From Candidatus Poseidoniaceae archaeon (lineage in GTDB: Archaea > Thermoplasmatota > Poseidoniia > Poseidoniales > Poseidoniaceae): a DNA stretch of 37,034 bases. The position numbers were made by a program, and so were the translations under genes. Under the pieces are notes generated by a model. The model was not told the origin of the DNA and did no database searches. It saw nothing but the letters and a program-made list of their open reading frames with translations. Below, piece after piece: positions 5,743 through 11,648 of this stretch (positions are counted from its first letter, which is position 1; each line of letters opens with the position of its first letter). Where the stretch lies: assembly GCA_028822955.1 (NCBI GenBank), contig JAPKCL010000001.1:1-37034 (forward strand), in the 5' to 3' direction.

Positions 5743-6300
5743 TCAATCTCTTGTGATACTCTCCGTATCTACGACGGTACAAAACTCGCCATGTAAACTG
5801 GCGAGGGCTGTTTGGTGAATGATTTCTGCATCGAACATATCTCCATTTATTGAGGTGCGTGGGAACGTAGCACAGGCATCTCCAACCAACTTGACATCAA
5901 ATCCTAAATTACCTGCCATTCGAACACTGGTCGAGATACAATGATTCGTTGTAAGGCCTAAAACCGCCAGTTTCTGTACTCCTTTACTTTTGAGAAATTG
6001 TTCTAATTCTGTACCGATGAAACAACTGTTCACTCTTTTTACAAATTCTGTTTCATTGTTTTGAGGTACTGCCCAGTCAGAATATGCAAAACCTGGTTTT
6101 TGACGACCTAAGGGGCTACCATCCTCTGTTGAGGAATGCCGAACATGGATGATGTCTCGTTTCGAATTTCGCCAGTGATGAAGAATAGATTTCGCATTCA
6201 CTTCAAAATCAGGATTATTCCGTTCACCCCATTGAGGGTCTTCGAATCCTTTTTGGCAATCGATGAGAAGAAGTGTGCGCTCTGCAAAAGAATTGGACAT
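5743..6300 (-). CDS. Isochorismatase-family cysteine hydrolase
   Basis: LLLIDCQKGF (catalytic Asp region) and LGLTTNHCISTSVR (catalytic Cys) motifs are present. The ORF extends to an ATG at 6381. The ATG at 6300 is preceded by AGGAGAG at about 8 nt and gives the usual 185 aa or so, so I prefer it. The start is ambiguous. Confidence 0.8.
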   Translation of the reverse strand: MSNSFAERTLLLIDCQKGFEDPQWGERNNPDFEVNAKSILHHWRNSKRDIIHVRHSSTEDGSPLGRQKPGFAYSDWAVPQNNETEFVKRVNSCFIGTELEQFLKSKGVQKLAVLGLTTNHCISTSVRMAGNLGFDVKLVGDACATFPRTSINGDMFDAEIIHQTALASLHGEFCTVVDTESITRD

Positions 6301-6455
6301 TACTTCTATCTCTCCTGAAGTCGACTCATGGTGTTCGTTAATAATATGTGATGGGAACAGAAATGAAGGCGTGTAGGCCAAGTTGTGTCAGCATGTTCTA
6401 CGGAATTCGTTGATTTGAGTACCGATGAAGATACTGCATTGTTCTTAAGAAACCT

Positions 6456-7421
6456 ATGCATGAGAAATTTGTGGACCCGACAGATGAGCAAGCAGGAGCA
6501 TGGACAAAAGCCTTTGAAGCGGGAAAATTCATCCGCAAATCGAGCGAATTCCGTGACGTAATTGCATCCGGTGATGCCTTTGACACGGAAAGTCAACGCT
6601 ATCACCTCTACGTGTCTCATGCATGCCCGTGGGCGCACAGGACTCTCATCACATCCGTCCTGCTTGGACTTGAAGAACACATAACATTCGATGTTGTCGA
6701 CTGGCGCATGAATCGAAATGGTTCATGGTCATTTAATCCAGAAGAAGAAGGGGCTACTGCCGATACTGTCAACGGTGAAACCAGTCTGGAAGGAATCTAC
6801 AAGCGAGCATATCACGGTTGGGAAGAAAGCGGGAATATTGGAACTGTTCCCATTTTGTGGGACCGAAAACACAGCACTATTGTCAATAACGAAAGCCGAG
6901 AGATTGTTCGAATGTTCGACACACTCGCTCAATCAGGCCTCGGCAATGGGCGAACGTTGTGTCCTGCTGAACTCAAACCCGGAATTGACCAAATGATCGA
7001 TGCGAATTATGAAGCGGTCAACAACGGCGTATACAAGTCTGGATTCGCCCGAACTCAATCTGCATACGATGAAGCAGTCACTGCCTTATTCAATCGCCTT
7101 GATGAATTAGAATCTCACCTCGAAGGTCGAGAATGGTTAGTTGGAGACGGAAAAGGGCAACTCACTGAAGCAGATGTTTGCCTCTTCCCAACCTTAGCGC
7201 GCTTTGATTTGGTTTATGTGGTTCATTTCAAGTGCAATCTCCGCAGAATCATTGATTATCCTAATCTACAAGCATTTGTAGAACGAATGCTGAACCAACC
7301 AGGCGTGCGAGAAACCTGTCACTGGCACCATATCAAAGCACATTACTTCTGGTCACACGAGAGCCTCAACCCTTACCGAATCATTCCACTCGGTCCACTT
7401 GAAGGCGCACATACGAAGTGA
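6456..7421 (+). CDS. Xi-class glutathione S-transferase / glutathionyl-hydroquinone reductase (YqjG/ECM4-like)
   Basis: RYHLYVSHACPWAHRTL contains the CPWA(H/N)R active-site motif of Xi-class GSTs. The length (321 aa) fits, and there is a C-terminal helical GST-like domain. Confidence 0.8.
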   Translation: MHEKFVDPTDEQAGAWTKAFEAGKFIRKSSEFRDVIASGDAFDTESQRYHLYVSHACPWAHRTLITSVLLGLEEHITFDVVDWRMNRNGSWSFNPEEEGATADTVNGETSLEGIYKRAYHGWEESGNIGTVPILWDRKHSTIVNNESREIVRMFDTLAQSGLGNGRTLCPAELKPGIDQMIDANYEAVNNGVYKSGFARTQSAYDEAVTALFNRLDELESHLEGREWLVGDGKGQLTEADVCLFPTLARFDLVYVVHFKCNLRRIIDYPNLQAFVERMLNQPGVRETCHWHHIKAHYFWSHESLNPYRIIPLGPLEGAHTK

Positions 7422-7444: not shown

Positions 7445-8194
7445 TCAGTCTTGCTGAGGCTTCAATTTAACCATTTTAATTAATTTCATTATTCGTAAGA
7501 AAAAATAGCCAATGTCAAAACCTCCGAAGTTTGCATTGCCAGGCATCCGATGGTGTTCGGCATGATTCCCTTCACCCATCGTGAGCATTGCACTTGGTAG
7601 AAAATTACGAGCTTCAGTATTTGGGTCATCTCTAGAACCGATTAAATGAGATACGGAATTAATTGAGTCACCAATGTTGTAAAACAACACGGTAATGGCC
7701 CAACCAAGAGCAATGCCAAACCATCCAAGTTCAGCGTAGAAGAAAAAGAATGGTAGAAGATGGGACAATGCGAGGATGAAATTTACTGGCCTGCGACTCA
7801 TGAATTTCAACAATGGCAAGTCCAAATCCTTTGGTAACTTTTCTGGAAACTTTTTCCAAATGAAGGGGTCTATTATTGTGCGAATTGGGCCTGCTATAGC
7901 ATACAGTATGGCAACTACAGTGCTGCTTGTAGAAAGGTACCAGCCACAATGGGCATGCCAAAAGCCACCAAAATACGGAGAGTGTGGGTCGTCTGCCGTA
8001 TCCGTAGTTTTGTGATGGATGCGATGGTTCAGCGCCCATTGGATTGGTGGCCCAGCCGGTGTTCCAGCGTAAACCAAGAGGTACTTCAGTGCAGAATTGG
8101 ATTGAAACGAATTATGGGAAATCAGACGGTGAGTTCCAAGTGAAACACCAAGGCCAATGAAGACATACCAAATGATCAAAAAGCCGTACATCAT
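7445..8194 (-). CDS. Membrane fatty-acyl (Delta9-type, acyl-CoA/acyl-lipid) desaturase family protein
   Basis: All conserved His boxes of the stearoyl-CoA desaturase family are present: GTHRLISH, WALNHRIHHKTTDTADDPHSP, GFWHAHCGW, NSVSHLIG and GEGNHAEHHRMP. At 249 aa it is short, with a single hydrophobic segment before box 1. Its start overlaps the upstream stop (ATGA at 8191-8194). Confidence 0.85.
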   Translation of the reverse strand: MMYGFLIIWYVFIGLGVSLGTHRLISHNSFQSNSALKYLLVYAGTPAGPPIQWALNHRIHHKTTDTADDPHSPYFGGFWHAHCGWYLSTSSTVVAILYAIAGPIRTIIDPFIWKKFPEKLPKDLDLPLLKFMSRRPVNFILALSHLLPFFFFYAELGWFGIALGWAITVLFYNIGDSINSVSHLIGSRDDPNTEARNFLPSAMLTMGEGNHAEHHRMPGNANFGGFDIGYFFLRIMKLIKMVKLKPQQD

Positions 8195-9114
8195 CTATTC
8201 TTCAACCCTAATTTGGAACGCATTCTTTCAAGATGGGCATGAGCGTGTTCGACAAAAAAGCCGTGCATGAGGAAGCGATAAGAAAGTCCCGTTGGCCCAA
8301 CGAGAATCATTGGGAAGCGGTTGTGAGCAAGGTCTGCAAAGTTCGCAGCTCCGAGGATTTCGTCAATGCGCAAGCCGACTGAATGATCGAATTGAAACGA
8401 ATTGATAGCGGCCTCATATTCTTTAGCAGTCAGCCAAAAACAGAACGTGGTTTTGAATAATTCATGAGCAGTTTCAAAATCAAGAAATTGGGTCCATTTC
8501 TTTCGAGAAGGCGAATATTGGATATCGACTGGTGCCCAATTTGTCCATTGTAACTCCTCCTCGGCGATCGGCCAATTTTCGCCTTTCATTTCACCTAAAT
8601 CACGCATTGTCATCAAGACGCCTTGGTCGTGATGGACGAACGTCTGGACCATGAGGTCTCGAATGACTTTCGGGTAAATGAGGACAGGCTCAACACCTTC
8701 TTTTCCAGAATTATCAATCACGAAATTCAGCAGGTTACTCTCGGTTTGGAAATGACGAAGAATCAAAATGTTGGCTTCAGGACGGACAAAGTGTTTCATA
8801 AAAAAGCAAATCTGCCATTGAAGGAATCTATGTGCTCTCCATTGAATTGGCGACAGCCGTTTGAGATAATAGGTGATGTGAAGAGTAATGCTGAGGAGGA
8901 TTTTCAAGGTTGGTAAAATGACCACTCGTAATGGATTTTGTAAATCTTTGAGCCAGTATTCTTTTGCTTCCAAATCTAAAGGGAGGCTGTCATCGCCACC
9001 CAGTGCATCACTCAGAGATGCTGGCATTCTTCCATGATTCTTGGAGAGCGCTTTGGCAAGACGGCGTTGAGCACGTTGCTCTTTCCGGGATAATGTTAAT
9101 TCACTGGATGTCAT
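8191..9114 (-). CDS. Hypothetical protein (307 aa), operon partner of the desaturase and KAS III-like genes
   Basis: Long ORF with an ATG at 9114 overlapping the upstream gene by 14 nt, and a stop overlapping the desaturase start. It has one hydrophobic segment (LRVVILPTLKILLSITLHITYYL). I recognised no family motif. Confidence 0.7.
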   Translation of the reverse strand: MTSSELTLSRKEQRAQRRLAKALSKNHGRMPASLSDALGGDDSLPLDLEAKEYWLKDLQNPLRVVILPTLKILLSITLHITYYLKRLSPIQWRAHRFLQWQICFFMKHFVRPEANILILRHFQTESNLLNFVIDNSGKEGVEPVLIYPKVIRDLMVQTFVHHDQGVLMTMRDLGEMKGENWPIAEEELQWTNWAPVDIQYSPSRKKWTQFLDFETAHELFKTTFCFWLTAKEYEAAINSFQFDHSVGLRIDEILGAANFADLAHNRFPMILVGPTGLSYRFLMHGFFVEHAHAHLERMRSKLGLKNR

Positions 9115-9850
9115 ATTCTATTTCCTCCAATTGTAATCGATAAAGTCGAGCAACAACTTTCGAAGTCTTGACAATACTTTTAATTGCTTTTTCGTTAACA
9201 CAAACACTGTTCAATGTTGCATAAAAACGCTGCATGTGGTCGCTATCGTTTTCTCCATGATAGGTCATGAAGCGAGTAGAATCTTCGGACAGGCCAGTGA
9301 GTTCTTGAATTCGTTCAGCCCATGAATTCGCCATCTTTTCTCCGAGACCTTCGATGATCCACATTGCACCGAGTAAATCAATCGGGTTTGGACGAGAGGA
9401 GCGATGCATGAGGAAGCCATGTAAGGCTTCTGAACCAATATTGCGTTCCATATTGAGGATGTCTTCAAGCTGGCCCCCTGATGCAACATAATCTTTCTCA
9501 AGCATTTCGTAATCACGGTGCTCATCGACAGCATGGCTGATAATGGTTGAACGAATTTCGGAATGGTCTCGGTCAAAACTACTTGCAGTTCGTGTAATCC
9601 ATCGCGACCCTTCGATGACTTGTTGTCGAATATTTCTCAAAAATATTTGATGGTCTTCGACAGTATAGGTGCCTAAATCAATTCGACGAAGAAGAGGGAC
9701 TTTGGACAAATCTCGTTCAAAACCAAGCCAAACACGGAGTAATTGTTGGAGGCACACTTGGGCATGTGAGTTCAATACCACTCCTTCATGCTCCTTTTCT
9801 TGAGTTGGAGCGGAACCGCCGCCTTCGATTGGAATTTTACCATTATTCAT
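9101..9850 (-). CDS. Heme-oxygenase-like (Haem_oxygenase_2 / iron-containing redox enzyme family) putative diiron protein
   Basis: The sequence looks all-helical, with carboxylate/His clusters spaced as in heme-oxygenase-like diiron oxidases and TenA/PqqC-like folds: HAVDEHRDYE, WIIEGLGEKM and YHGENDSDHMQRF. The family assignment is by pattern only. The start overlaps the KAS III stop (ATGA at 9847-9850). Confidence 0.55.
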   Translation of the reverse strand: MNNGKIPIEGGGSAPTQEKEHEGVVLNSHAQVCLQQLLRVWLGFERDLSKVPLLRRIDLGTYTVEDHQIFLRNIRQQVIEGSRWITRTASSFDRDHSEIRSTIISHAVDEHRDYEMLEKDYVASGGQLEDILNMERNIGSEALHGFLMHRSSRPNPIDLLGAMWIIEGLGEKMANSWAERIQELTGLSEDSTRFMTYHGENDSDHMQRFYATLNSVCVNEKAIKSIVKTSKVVARLYRLQLEEIEYDIQ

Positions 9851-10983
9851 TCACTCACCACCGTTAATTGCAGATAGGTCGTATTGAAACGCCCACTTTC
9901 TGGAACAAAACAGAGGACTCTGTCCCCTTCTTTCACCGTTACTTCCTCTGTGCGTAAGAATTCATCAAGCATAATGAAGAGTGATGCTGAACCAGTGTTG
10001 CCACGTGTGTAGAGGTTTGTCCACCACTTTTCTTCAGGTATTCCAGCGCCGGCCGTATCAAGCATTTCGAGAATTTTATTTCTAAAGTGGTGGCTTGAGT
10101 AATGGCACAAGAAGTGGTCGACTTCGCTGGGCTTACTCACGCCTTCTTCGACGAGGCGAAGATACCCATCGACGCCCATTCGCATGAGGTTATCGAGGAG
10201 ACGAACGTCTTGGCGAAGAAGGAGAGCGCCGTCTTGTTCTGCTTCTGCATAGGTGTCATAATCTTGCCAAGTTCGAGTGTCTTCAGGGCGTCCTGCAGAA
10301 CCGACACTCATGCAGGTAGGGAGGGCGTGGGCGTGTGAAAAGCCCCGAATCCAATCAATCCGTAAACTGAAACCTTTGGGGGCTGGTTTGTTTTGTAACA
10401 AGAGTGCTCCGGCGCCATCAGAAAGCATCCATCGGAGGAATTCAGTGCTGAAGTCAATGCGTTTCGCAGCAAAGGTCGAGGTGGTCGCAGCCTCATAACG
10501 TTGCTTTTTGAGAAGTCGGCTGGCTAATTCACTGGAGACAACAAGGGCTGCTTCATGCTCTTCAAGACGCAAACTGTTCCAAGCTGCCTTCAGTGCCATA
10601 ATCGATGAAGAACAAATTCCATGCGTCGTAAGGATTTCTATTTCAGGTAGTTCCAATTCCGCTTGTACCATACTCGCCATTCCCGGGGCAGGGAGGTCAC
10701 CTTGCGTCGAAGCGACGGCCAACATGCCTATCTTCTCTCGGTGGACGAAACCGCGGTCAAGGCATTGTTCTGCAGCATTTGTTGCCATTTCGGTATTGCT
10801 GTGTGTTGTTTGTTGTTGTTCATCAATTGCATAATGGCGCGTTTCAATTTTGTTCGCTTTTTGAATTTGGACGCGAAGAGAAGAAGGTTTGCCATGAACG
10901 GCGCCAAGTACGTTTTCGACCTGGTCAACTGAAATTGCTGGGCCTGGTAAAAAGGAACCTGTACTGGTGATGTAAACCGTCAT
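9847..10983 (-). CDS. 3-oxoacyl-ACP synthase III (FabH/KAS III)-like condensing enzyme, thiolase superfamily
   Basis: A Cys-His-Asn triad sits in the expected context: THGIC(124)SSS, FLCH(294)YSS and YTRGN(329)TGSAS. The 378-aa length is FabH-like. The start overlaps the upstream stop (ATGA at 10980-10983). Confidence 0.85.
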   Translation of the reverse strand: MTVYITSTGSFLPGPAISVDQVENVLGAVHGKPSSLRVQIQKANKIETRHYAIDEQQQTTHSNTEMATNAAEQCLDRGFVHREKIGMLAVASTQGDLPAPGMASMVQAELELPEIEILTTHGICSSSIMALKAAWNSLRLEEHEAALVVSSELASRLLKKQRYEAATTSTFAAKRIDFSTEFLRWMLSDGAGALLLQNKPAPKGFSLRIDWIRGFSHAHALPTCMSVGSAGRPEDTRTWQDYDTYAEAEQDGALLLRQDVRLLDNLMRMGVDGYLRLVEEGVSKPSEVDHFLCHYSSHHFRNKILEMLDTAGAGIPEEKWWTNLYTRGNTGSASLFIMLDEFLRTEEVTVKEGDRVLCFVPESGRFNTTYLQLTVVSE

Positions 10984-11555
10984 TTAATCGCCTCTTTGGC
11001 AAGATTTCTTTCATATGTCCAGCAACGCCACCATTCTTGAGCATAGGGGCCAACCACTAAGATCGACATTGAAGTGATGTAGAATACTGCGTAATTTCCA
11101 GTTGCGCCCAAAGGCTCTTGGCGCCATTGCAAAGAAAAACCACCGGCCCAATTGAAGCCAATCAAATCGAGGAAAACTTCCCACTTTCGAACAATTATCA
11201 AGAGTATAAGGAAGAACGGCAAGGTGGCTAAATAATTATGAGCGTGAACTTCCCAGATGCTTATTTCTCTTTTACCAGTCGTGAAATGAACATCATAGTG
11301 CGCGATGAATTCATGCGCAATTAGTGCTGCAAAGCAAAGAATAAGAATCAATACATTGACTTCAAAAACAAGAGAAAGGACCAATGGAAGGCCAATTTGA
11401 GCACCCATGAGGCAATGGATATTTGCTTCACGTAATCCGGAAGTGGATTCGATACTGGTCTGTTTATGGCACCACCAATCAAGTATACTGGCAATGCCCC
11501 AAAGTGGCAAGAGGACATAGAGAATTATGTTTAACACCAGAGTTGCTTCGTCCAT
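10980..11555 (-). CDS. His-rich small integral membrane protein (191 aa), first gene of the operon
   Basis: About five hydrophobic segments. His clusters lie at predicted membrane boundaries: WWCHKQ, IAHEFIAHYDVH and EVHAHNY. The ATG at 11555 is preceded by GTAGGGGAA. Confidence 0.7.
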   Translation of the reverse strand: MDEATLVLNIILYVLLPLWGIASILDWWCHKQTSIESTSGLREANIHCLMGAQIGLPLVLSLVFEVNVLILILCFAALIAHEFIAHYDVHFTTGKREISIWEVHAHNYLATLPFFLILLIIVRKWEVFLDLIGFNWAGGFSLQWRQEPLGATGNYAVFYITSMSILVVGPYAQEWWRCWTYERNLAKEAIK

Positions 11556-11648
11556 AGCGATTCCCCTACATTACCTTCTAATGCTCATTTGATAAAAAGA
11601 CAGTTCCGGACAAAACAACATTCGCGATAATTTTGAGACCCCCAGGAA

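Follow-up and report, generated by a model that had tools for sequence, protein, structure and literature searches.

A candidate heme-oxygenase-like dimetal oxidase coupled to a ketosynthase appears to replace the aromatising enzyme of an unstudied phenolic-lipid pathway in Poseidoniaceae and bacteria

HDO249 is a candidate heme-oxygenase-like dimetal oxidase (HDO) of 249 amino acids (aa) encoded in the genome of a Candidatus Poseidoniaceae archaeon (assembly GCA_028822955.1, here G000), a member of the marine group IIa archaea. The stretch analysed, positions 1 to 37,034 of contig JAPKCL010000001.1, is referred to below as the window. The gene follows that of KS378, a ketosynthase (KS) resembling StlD and DarB, and the HDO appears to take the place of the usual aromatase in an as yet unstudied phenolic-lipid pathway. 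The reading as a whole, in which a ketosynthase-coupled HDO acts on the ketosynthase product by O2-dependent oxidative decarboxylation and aromatisation, is given a probability of about 0.4. Its parts differ in strength. The HDO and the StlD/DarB-like ketosynthase very probably act in the same pathway, and HDO249 is likely, judged from its sequence and structure model, to have the HDO fold with a predicted dimetal site. The specific step, an aromatising oxidative decarboxylation argued from analogy with characterised enzymes, is a tentative assignment.

The proposed replacement is suggested by the partners that related ketosynthases keep. StlD and DarB make a cyclohexanedione acid; in canonical systems a DarA/StlC aromatase is needed to convert this acid into a resorcinol and is the sole conserved neighbour of the ketosynthase (PMC13748660). 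When 400 gammaproteobacterial genomes were searched with the DarB model (NF053539), 20 had a strong match. Fourteen of these carry a canonical ketosynthase (447–537 bits), always with an adjacent DarA-like open reading frame (ORF) and never with an adjacent HDO; two of these canonical ketosynthases, scanned on NF005293, scored 568 and 622 bits. The remaining six are of the cassette type (at most 387 bits), all with an HDO adjacent or fused and none with a DarA-like gene. The probability of this 14/6 partition arising by chance is 1/38,760. The DarA-like ORF is flavodoxin-like and about 310 aa long; it is identified by position and conservation and matches no NCBIfam or Pfam model. No DarA-like gene was found in the genome of the window, in two congeners or in three bacterial genomes with the cassette (G026, G062, G151–G153), and the DUF6999 protein encoded next to HDO249 has no homology to the DarA-like ORF (hhalign probability 0.65%). 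The exclusion of DarA and HDO from each other's loci fits the HDO as a replacement of the aromatase.

The same exclusion bears on the possibility that the HDO acts before the ketosynthase, on the fatty acyl chain, and makes the condensation substrate by desaturation or by oxidative decarboxylation of the UndA/BesC kind. Both UndA and BesC are fatty- or amino-acid-desaturating HDOs (PMC7848743), and UndA is among the fold matches of HDO249. An earlier note on this DNA, made from the letters and ORF translations, had also guessed at a fatty-acyl-derived substrate, a guess that agrees with the obligate pairing of the HDO with an StlD/DarB-like ketosynthase. An upstream role, however, leaves the absence of DarA exactly where HDO occurs unexplained, and enoyl and beta-ketoacyl thioesters are ordinary intermediates of beta-oxidation and fatty acid synthesis, so a special enzyme would not be needed to supply them. 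It is regarded as improbable.

Coupling of the two genes is widespread. Gene order was counted in the best 80 loci of the genome-collection scan, some of them on truncated contigs. The order TM191-KS-HDO-DUF6999, in which TM191 is a small His-rich membrane protein, recurs in essentially all 80, in archaea and bacteria alike (Poseidoniaceae, Rheinheimera, Cellvibrionaceae, Woeseiaceae, Endozoicomonas, Pseudoalteromonas and Myxococcota); one locus, L075, has a rearranged order. A search of representatives from all databases returned KS-HDO fusion proteins of 627–644 aa and, in a single case, a KS-HDO-DUF6999 fusion of 868 aa. KS-HDO fusions were verified in DNA at five loci (L087–L091), and 16 of the 19 strong Myxococcota matches lie fused within open frames of 599–750 aa. 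In the window, HDO249 is the third of five minus-strand ORFs with overlapping stops and starts (4 nt between TM191 and KS378, 4 nt, ATGA, between KS378 and HDO249, 14 nt between HDO249 and DUF6999, and 4 nt between DUF6999 and the desaturase-like DES249); judged from these overlaps, the cassette is translationally coupled. The earlier note had placed the gene between a condensing enzyme and a desaturase. The condensing enzyme does adjoin it, but the other neighbour is DUF6999, and the desaturase-like gene lies one further downstream.

Variant clusters point to a second alternative, in which the HDO is an oxygenase or hydroxylase of ring or chain that works after aromatisation, for example by giving a dialkylresorcinol a head group of the hydroxyquinol or quinone type, with aromatisation either spontaneous or carried out by DUF6999. 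Ring-tailoring genes in these clusters (Coq4, FAD_binding_3 monooxygenase and methyltransferases) favour later oxygenation of a ring, as does the co-conservation of DUF6999 in 79 loci. A conserved carboxylate of HDO249, E80 on the auxiliary helix 64–90 (E or D in 33 of 41 aligned sequences), recalls the extra carboxylate of N-oxygenating HDOs. Yet it is the HDO, not DUF6999, that is the constant and fused partner; L087 and L088 are without DUF6999, and the clean alternation of DarA and HDO fits replacement of the aromatase. Such a later role is possible, though rather doubtful. In L087 and L088, a Coq4-family protein (74.7 bits; L087:7881–8588 and L088:2659–3366) occupies the DUF6999 position directly after the KS-HDO fusion, and an MMPL transporter comes before. 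Other variant clusters hold MMPL lipid exporters and a PapA-like acyltransferase, which fit an exported or acylated phenolic lipid. The bacterial Coq4 homologues of L087 and L088, found here in a non-ubiquinone context, may merit a study of their own.

HDO249 itself had been described in the earlier note as an all-helical protein with three carboxylate/histidine motifs, assigned by those motifs to the HDO superfamily, with a profile search against Pfam and the PDB and an AlphaFold model suggested as checks. The ORF stands, now with its minus strand, and the three motifs lie in the translation where they had been placed (Table 1). In the profile search, HDO249 scored 37.0 bits with PF14518 (Haem_oxygenas_2, “iron-containing redox enzyme”), above the gathering threshold of 28.9, the match being limited to residues 145–235 in the C-terminal half of the model. 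The heme oxygenase family PF01126 stayed under its cut-off (13.4 against 23 bits), the Pfam model TENA_THI-4 gave no match at E ≤ 1, and the CADD family TIGR04305 reached 14.2 bits against a curated cut-off of 200. The only meaningful PDB sequence match is 3DDE, titled a DUF of heme-oxygenase-like fold (E 1e-5 with the single sequence, 2.6e-15 with a 41-sequence profile). The AlphaFold2 (AF2) model, built from the 41-sequence alignment, is a confident all-helical bundle of ten helices (predicted local distance difference test, pLDDT, 91.4; predicted template modelling score, pTM, 0.86). A Foldseek search of the PDB with this model ranked 3DDE first (template modelling, TM, score 0.80/0.85; root-mean-square deviation, rmsd, 2.1 Å), followed by three CADD structures (8VAG, 8VA9 and 1RCW; TM 0.75/0.86, rmsd 2.4 Å), two of which hold Mn/Mn or Fe/Mn. 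HmuO/HO-1 and TenA come next and UndA is at rank 25; the Foldseek probability is 1.00 for the 3DDE, CADD, heme oxygenase, TenA and UndA matches alike. Together with the co-conserved candidate ligands in the motifs, PF14518 and the ranking of 3DDE and CADD support the superfamily assignment. At the level of the fold this assignment is not new, because NCBI labels orthologs of HDO249 “iron-containing redox enzyme family protein”.

Conservation of the candidate metal site was counted in the 41-sequence HDO alignment, where the most conserved polar residues are H106, E110, D113, E118, E167, H198, D202 and H205. Individual counts are 35/41 for H106, 37/41 for E110, 29/41 for H111, 39/41 for D113, 36/41 for E118 and 39/41 for E167, and H198-x3-D202-x2-H205 is kept in 34–35 of the 41. 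The full heptad H106/E110/D113/E167/H198/D202/H205 is present in 40 of the 66 representatives of 50%-identity clusters that cover residues 100–210, and it is whole in all sequences at least 37% identical to HDO249 except P0132, which has R at position 198. In the most divergent relatives several heptad positions are altered together. Because the seven residues co-occur and are lost together, the motifs exceed chance. In the AF2 model, core helix 1 is interrupted (helix 94–110, a break at 111–112, then 113–123). A distant homologue at L093:1955–2671 (30% identity) has lost the entire candidate ligand set; its neighbours (a methyltransferase, a CDP-alcohol phosphatidyltransferase, CTP_transf_1 and an acyltransferase) are those of a phospholipid-synthesis rather than a ketosynthase context.

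The best match, 3DDE, is Sden_3740 of Shewanella denitrificans, a structural-genomics protein on which no paper was found in the literature searched. It has His, Glu, Glu and H-x3-D-x2-H aligned with HDO249: in the gapless profile alignment, E110 lies opposite E84, E167 is aligned with the Glu of “YWAENVYG” and HGENDSDH with “HSKIDAKH”. It differs in its identity of about 20% and in having H87 opposite D113, where the HDO249 family has D113 or Y114. The earlier note had held that best matches to TenA or PqqC, or to a non-metal helical family with the proposed ligands not converging, would speak against an HDO. The deposition of 3DDE as “TenA/THI-4” goes some way in that direction, yet the protein aligns with the same candidate ligands, and no TenA family model matched HDO249.

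That deposition, the TenA and heme oxygenase structures among the fold matches and the non-canonical ligands of the first helix would suit a non-metal protein of the heme oxygenase/TenA/PqqC fold, serving the ketosynthase as scaffold, chaperone or cofactor-less oxidase, with the conserved His, Asp and Glu residues binding substrate. Several observations argue for a metal site instead. The families PF01126 and TENA_THI-4 are not matched above their cut-offs, H-x3-D-x2-H and the Glu are co-conserved and lost as a block, and the best characterised fold match is CADD with metal bound. A non-metal role has little probability.

CADD (CT610) of Chlamydia trachomatis is an Fe:Mn HDO and a self-sacrificial p-aminobenzoate synthase. 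It has the heme-oxygenase-like bundle in common with HDO249 and is its closest characterised structure, which brings up an HDO249 that likewise sacrifices itself and turns a tyrosine of its own into an aromatic building block. The two proteins are, however, only 15–16% identical, no equivalent of the substrate Tyr27 is seen in HDO249, and the score with TIGR04305 falls far below its cut-off. The first helix of the HDO249 family has no conserved Tyr, W41 and F44 being conserved there. CADD stands alone, whereas HDO249 is coupled, and its relatives fused, to a ketosynthase, a fusion that argues for a diffusible lipid substrate. Self-sacrifice is very improbable.

Two further HDOs offer partial likenesses. 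UndA of Pseudomonas, which converts lauric acid into 1-undecene, has the superfamily fold in common with HDO249 (TM 0.68–0.70) and a chemistry like that proposed here, with no sequence similarity detected by phmmer; its substrate is a linear fatty acid, whereas that proposed for HDO249 is a cyclic beta-diketo acid. Core helix 1 of UndA carries E101-x2-H104, against H106-x3-E110-x2-D113 in HDO249. The HDO domain of the N-oxygenase SznF has its core-helix-3 ligands, H311/D315/H318, at a spacing identical to that of H-x3-D-x2-H in HDO249, shares an interrupted first core helix with it and possesses an E189 of which E80 is reminiscent (PMC7848743). SznF differs in acting on an amino-acid guanidine, in its extra domains and in falling outside the top 50 fold matches.

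KS378 matches the crystal structure of StlD, 5gk0, from end to end (E 1e-70), its C124, E152, H294 and the Asn of GNTGSAS falling on the Cys, Glu, His and Asn of StlD. The DarAB(C) and StlCDE systems for dialkylresorcinol and stilbene have a like ketosynthase, and a ring-forming condensation of two chains followed by an oxidative step is expected in both cases (PMC13748660). The cassette differs in having no DarA/StlC-like aromatase and no acyl carrier protein (ACP) of the DarC/StlE type in the operon; the partners of its ketosynthase are the HDO, DUF6999 and the His-rich membrane protein. No stand-alone ACP was found in G000 (81% complete), all of whose PP-binding domains are embedded in ORFs of 1014 and 2044 aa. 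The longer frame, open over more than 2044 aa, holds three tandem ACP domains (C126:52–948; L084, L085), and the 1014-aa frame holds a single one (C46:3452–3658; L086); by their domain content, these frames look like a polyunsaturated fatty acid synthase or a polyketide-synthase-like megasynthase in a marine group II archaeon.

In the proposed mechanism, the ketosynthase would join a beta-ketoacyl and an enoyl or acyl thioester into a 2,5-dialkyl-cyclohexane-1,3-dione carboxylic acid. The HDO would bind the carboxylate of this acid at an Fe/Fe (or Fe/Mn) site, activate O2, abstract the adjacent ring hydrogen and expel CO2, forming a ring C=C in the manner of UndA, in which the carboxylate is bound to Fe1 and abstraction of the beta-hydrogen is followed by loss of CO2 and formation of the C=C (PMC7848743). 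The product would be an aromatic dialkylresorcinol made without a DarA/StlC aromatase, and DUF6999, the His-rich membrane protein and the desaturase- or hydroxylase-like proteins might then act on this phenolic lipid in the membrane, oxidising or tailoring it. The Coq4-family protein in the DUF6999 position of the variant clusters is a supporting hint for ring decarboxylation, COQ4 having been implicated in oxidative decarboxylation of an aromatic carboxylate (PMC10680789).

Several points weigh against this mechanism. Cyclohexanedione acids are reported to decarboxylate spontaneously in DarAB assays (PMC13748660), and an enzyme for an oxidative decarboxylation is therefore not strictly needed. 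DUF6999, almost as constantly linked, could be the aromatase instead. KS378 lies under the curated StlD/DarB cut-offs (380 against 450 bits with NF005293, 326 against 550 with NF053539), and its product may for that reason not be a cyclohexanedione. On core helix 1, E110 is without a conserved His 3–10 residues later, the conserved residues being H106 (i-4), H111, D113 and E118; the resulting pattern H-x3-E-H-x-D is non-canonical beside the E-x(n)-H of characterised HDOs. UndA, the model for the chemistry, ranks low among the fold matches, and CADD, the nearest characterised structural relative, performs a self-sacrificial chemistry that is quite different.

Table 1. Positions in the window of HDO249, its candidate ligand motifs and the other genes of the operon.
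Feature	Position	Strand	Basis
HDO249, candidate heme-oxygenase-like dimetal oxidase, 249 aa	9101–9850	-	ATG-to-stop ORF; PF14518, AF2, Foldseek
HAVDEHRD, residues 106–113 (end of core helix 1 and turn); candidate ligands H106, E110, (H111), D113	9512–9535	-	Translation
WIIEGLGEKM, residues 164–173	9332–9361	-	Translation
E167 in WIIEGLGEKM, core helix 2 (159–185), candidate bridging carboxylate	9350–9352	-	39/41 conserved; aligned to 3DDE Glu
HGENDSDH, residues 198–205 (H198-x3-D202-x2-H205), core helix 3 (193–216)	9236–9259	-	Translation, conservation
TM191, His-rich small membrane protein, 191 aa, first operon gene	10980–11555	-	Invariant residues; upstream of KS in 78 loci
KS378, StlD/DarB-like KAS III ketosynthase	9847–10983	-	StlD 5gk0 match
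DUF6999 protein, 307 aa	8191–9114	-	PF22523, 297 bits
DES249, short FA_desaturase-family His-box membrane protein, accessory fifth gene	7445–8194	-	PF00487, 58 bits

The other proteins of the cassette are rich in conserved potential ligands. In TM191, H30, H47, H81, E82, H86, D88, E102, H104 and H106 are invariant; it matched no Pfam, NCBIfam or PDB relative, and the idea of a minimal FA_hydroxylase was rejected (hhalign probability 0.03%, no PDB match). DUF6999 has H79, H95, E113, H121, E125, H162, D163, E214, H217, H284 and E289 invariant. Its AF2 model is all-alpha (pLDDT 83) and found no significant fold match in the PDB by Foldseek (best E 1.5, TM < 0.2). A hidden known enzyme was likewise rejected, DUF6999 having neither a sequence nor a fold match in the PDB and being neither Coq4-like nor DarA-like. 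By their invariant His, Asp and Glu residues, both proteins look like further metalloproteins, and DUF6999, to go by its model, may be a new metalloprotein fold. The fifth gene varies. A DES249-type FA_desaturase gene is present in 13 of the 80 loci and in nine of the 19 Myxococcota loci, where the fifth gene encodes an FA_desaturase-like and/or an FA_hydroxylase protein. Where the window has DES249, most Poseidoniaceae cassettes (23 loci, e.g., L017:7811–8662) encode a His-box membrane protein of another kind, 285 aa long (HNHTH, HIGNHHRHKH, HTAHHE). Downstream of DUF6999 in Rheinheimera (L054, L059, L071, L082), a predicted secreted protein of about 810 aa and/or a protein of about 290 aa is encoded.

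Upstream, the operon adjoins the gene for the large subunit (DP2) of archaeal PolD. The DP2 stop and the first gene of the operon are separated by 93 nt (11556–11648). Some 35 nt before the ATG, this gap contains CTTTTTATCAAA, which could serve the operon as an archaeal TATA box. Just downstream lie a glutathione S-transferase (GST) gene of Xi-class-like type (GST_N_2/GST_C_2, CPWAHR motif; 6456–7421, plus strand) and an isochorismatase-family gene (5743–6381, minus strand). A GST of the glutathionyl-hydroquinone-reductase type beside a putative phenolic-lipid operon is suggestive. Membership of the GST and the isochorismatase in the pathway was nevertheless rejected, the GST recurring only in the closest relatives (L004–L006, L008).

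Relatives of the HDO were found in at least 575 species-level genomes of the genome-collection scan and form about 1,560 clusters at 90% identity. Among Poseidoniales the distribution is patchy: the gene is present in 16 of 151 genomes, confined to one family and to four of 22 genera. A tree of KS and HDO sequences groups the archaeal ones in a single clade beside Myxococcota. Both this placement and the patchy spread are consistent with an accessory cassette that has passed between domains. GC content was examined for a signal of recent acquisition and none was seen, the cassette (0.44–0.50) being similar to its flanks. Three contigs labelled as “uncultured bacterium” (L023), Verrucomicrobiales (L027) and Salinimicrobium (L045) carry Poseidoniaceae-type cassettes. 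L023 and L027 are nested within the archaeal clade of the tree, the genes around the L027 cassette include ones shared with Poseidoniaceae, and L045 is too truncated to place; all three are probably mis-binned archaeal contigs.

HDOs are, to our knowledge, a young superfamily of which nearly every characterised member has shown unusual chemistry, and we know of none fused to a ketosynthase or acting on a polyketide-type ring. No published description of the TM-KS-HDO-DUF6999 cassette or of the proposed chemistry was found in the literature searched, where the coupling and fusion to a ketosynthase, the exclusion of DarA and the cassette as a whole appear undescribed. The HDO family is large and occurs in the sea, and with three of the four cassette proteins lacking an assigned function it offers a compact target. 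In its furthest extension, which is speculative, HDO249 would be the first representative of an HDO class with a new function, that of a ring-aromatising oxidative decarboxylase physically coupled to a ketosynthase. The membrane lipid that it would produce with DUF6999 and the His-rich membrane protein, in Poseidoniaceae and in hundreds of bacterial species, would be a redox-active dialkyl-benzenoid (quinol-like) of a kind not seen before. Marine group II archaea rank with the most abundant archaea of the plankton, and there is debate about their lipid biochemistry; in them, the cassette would be the record of a bacterial-type fatty-acyl secondary-lipid pathway.

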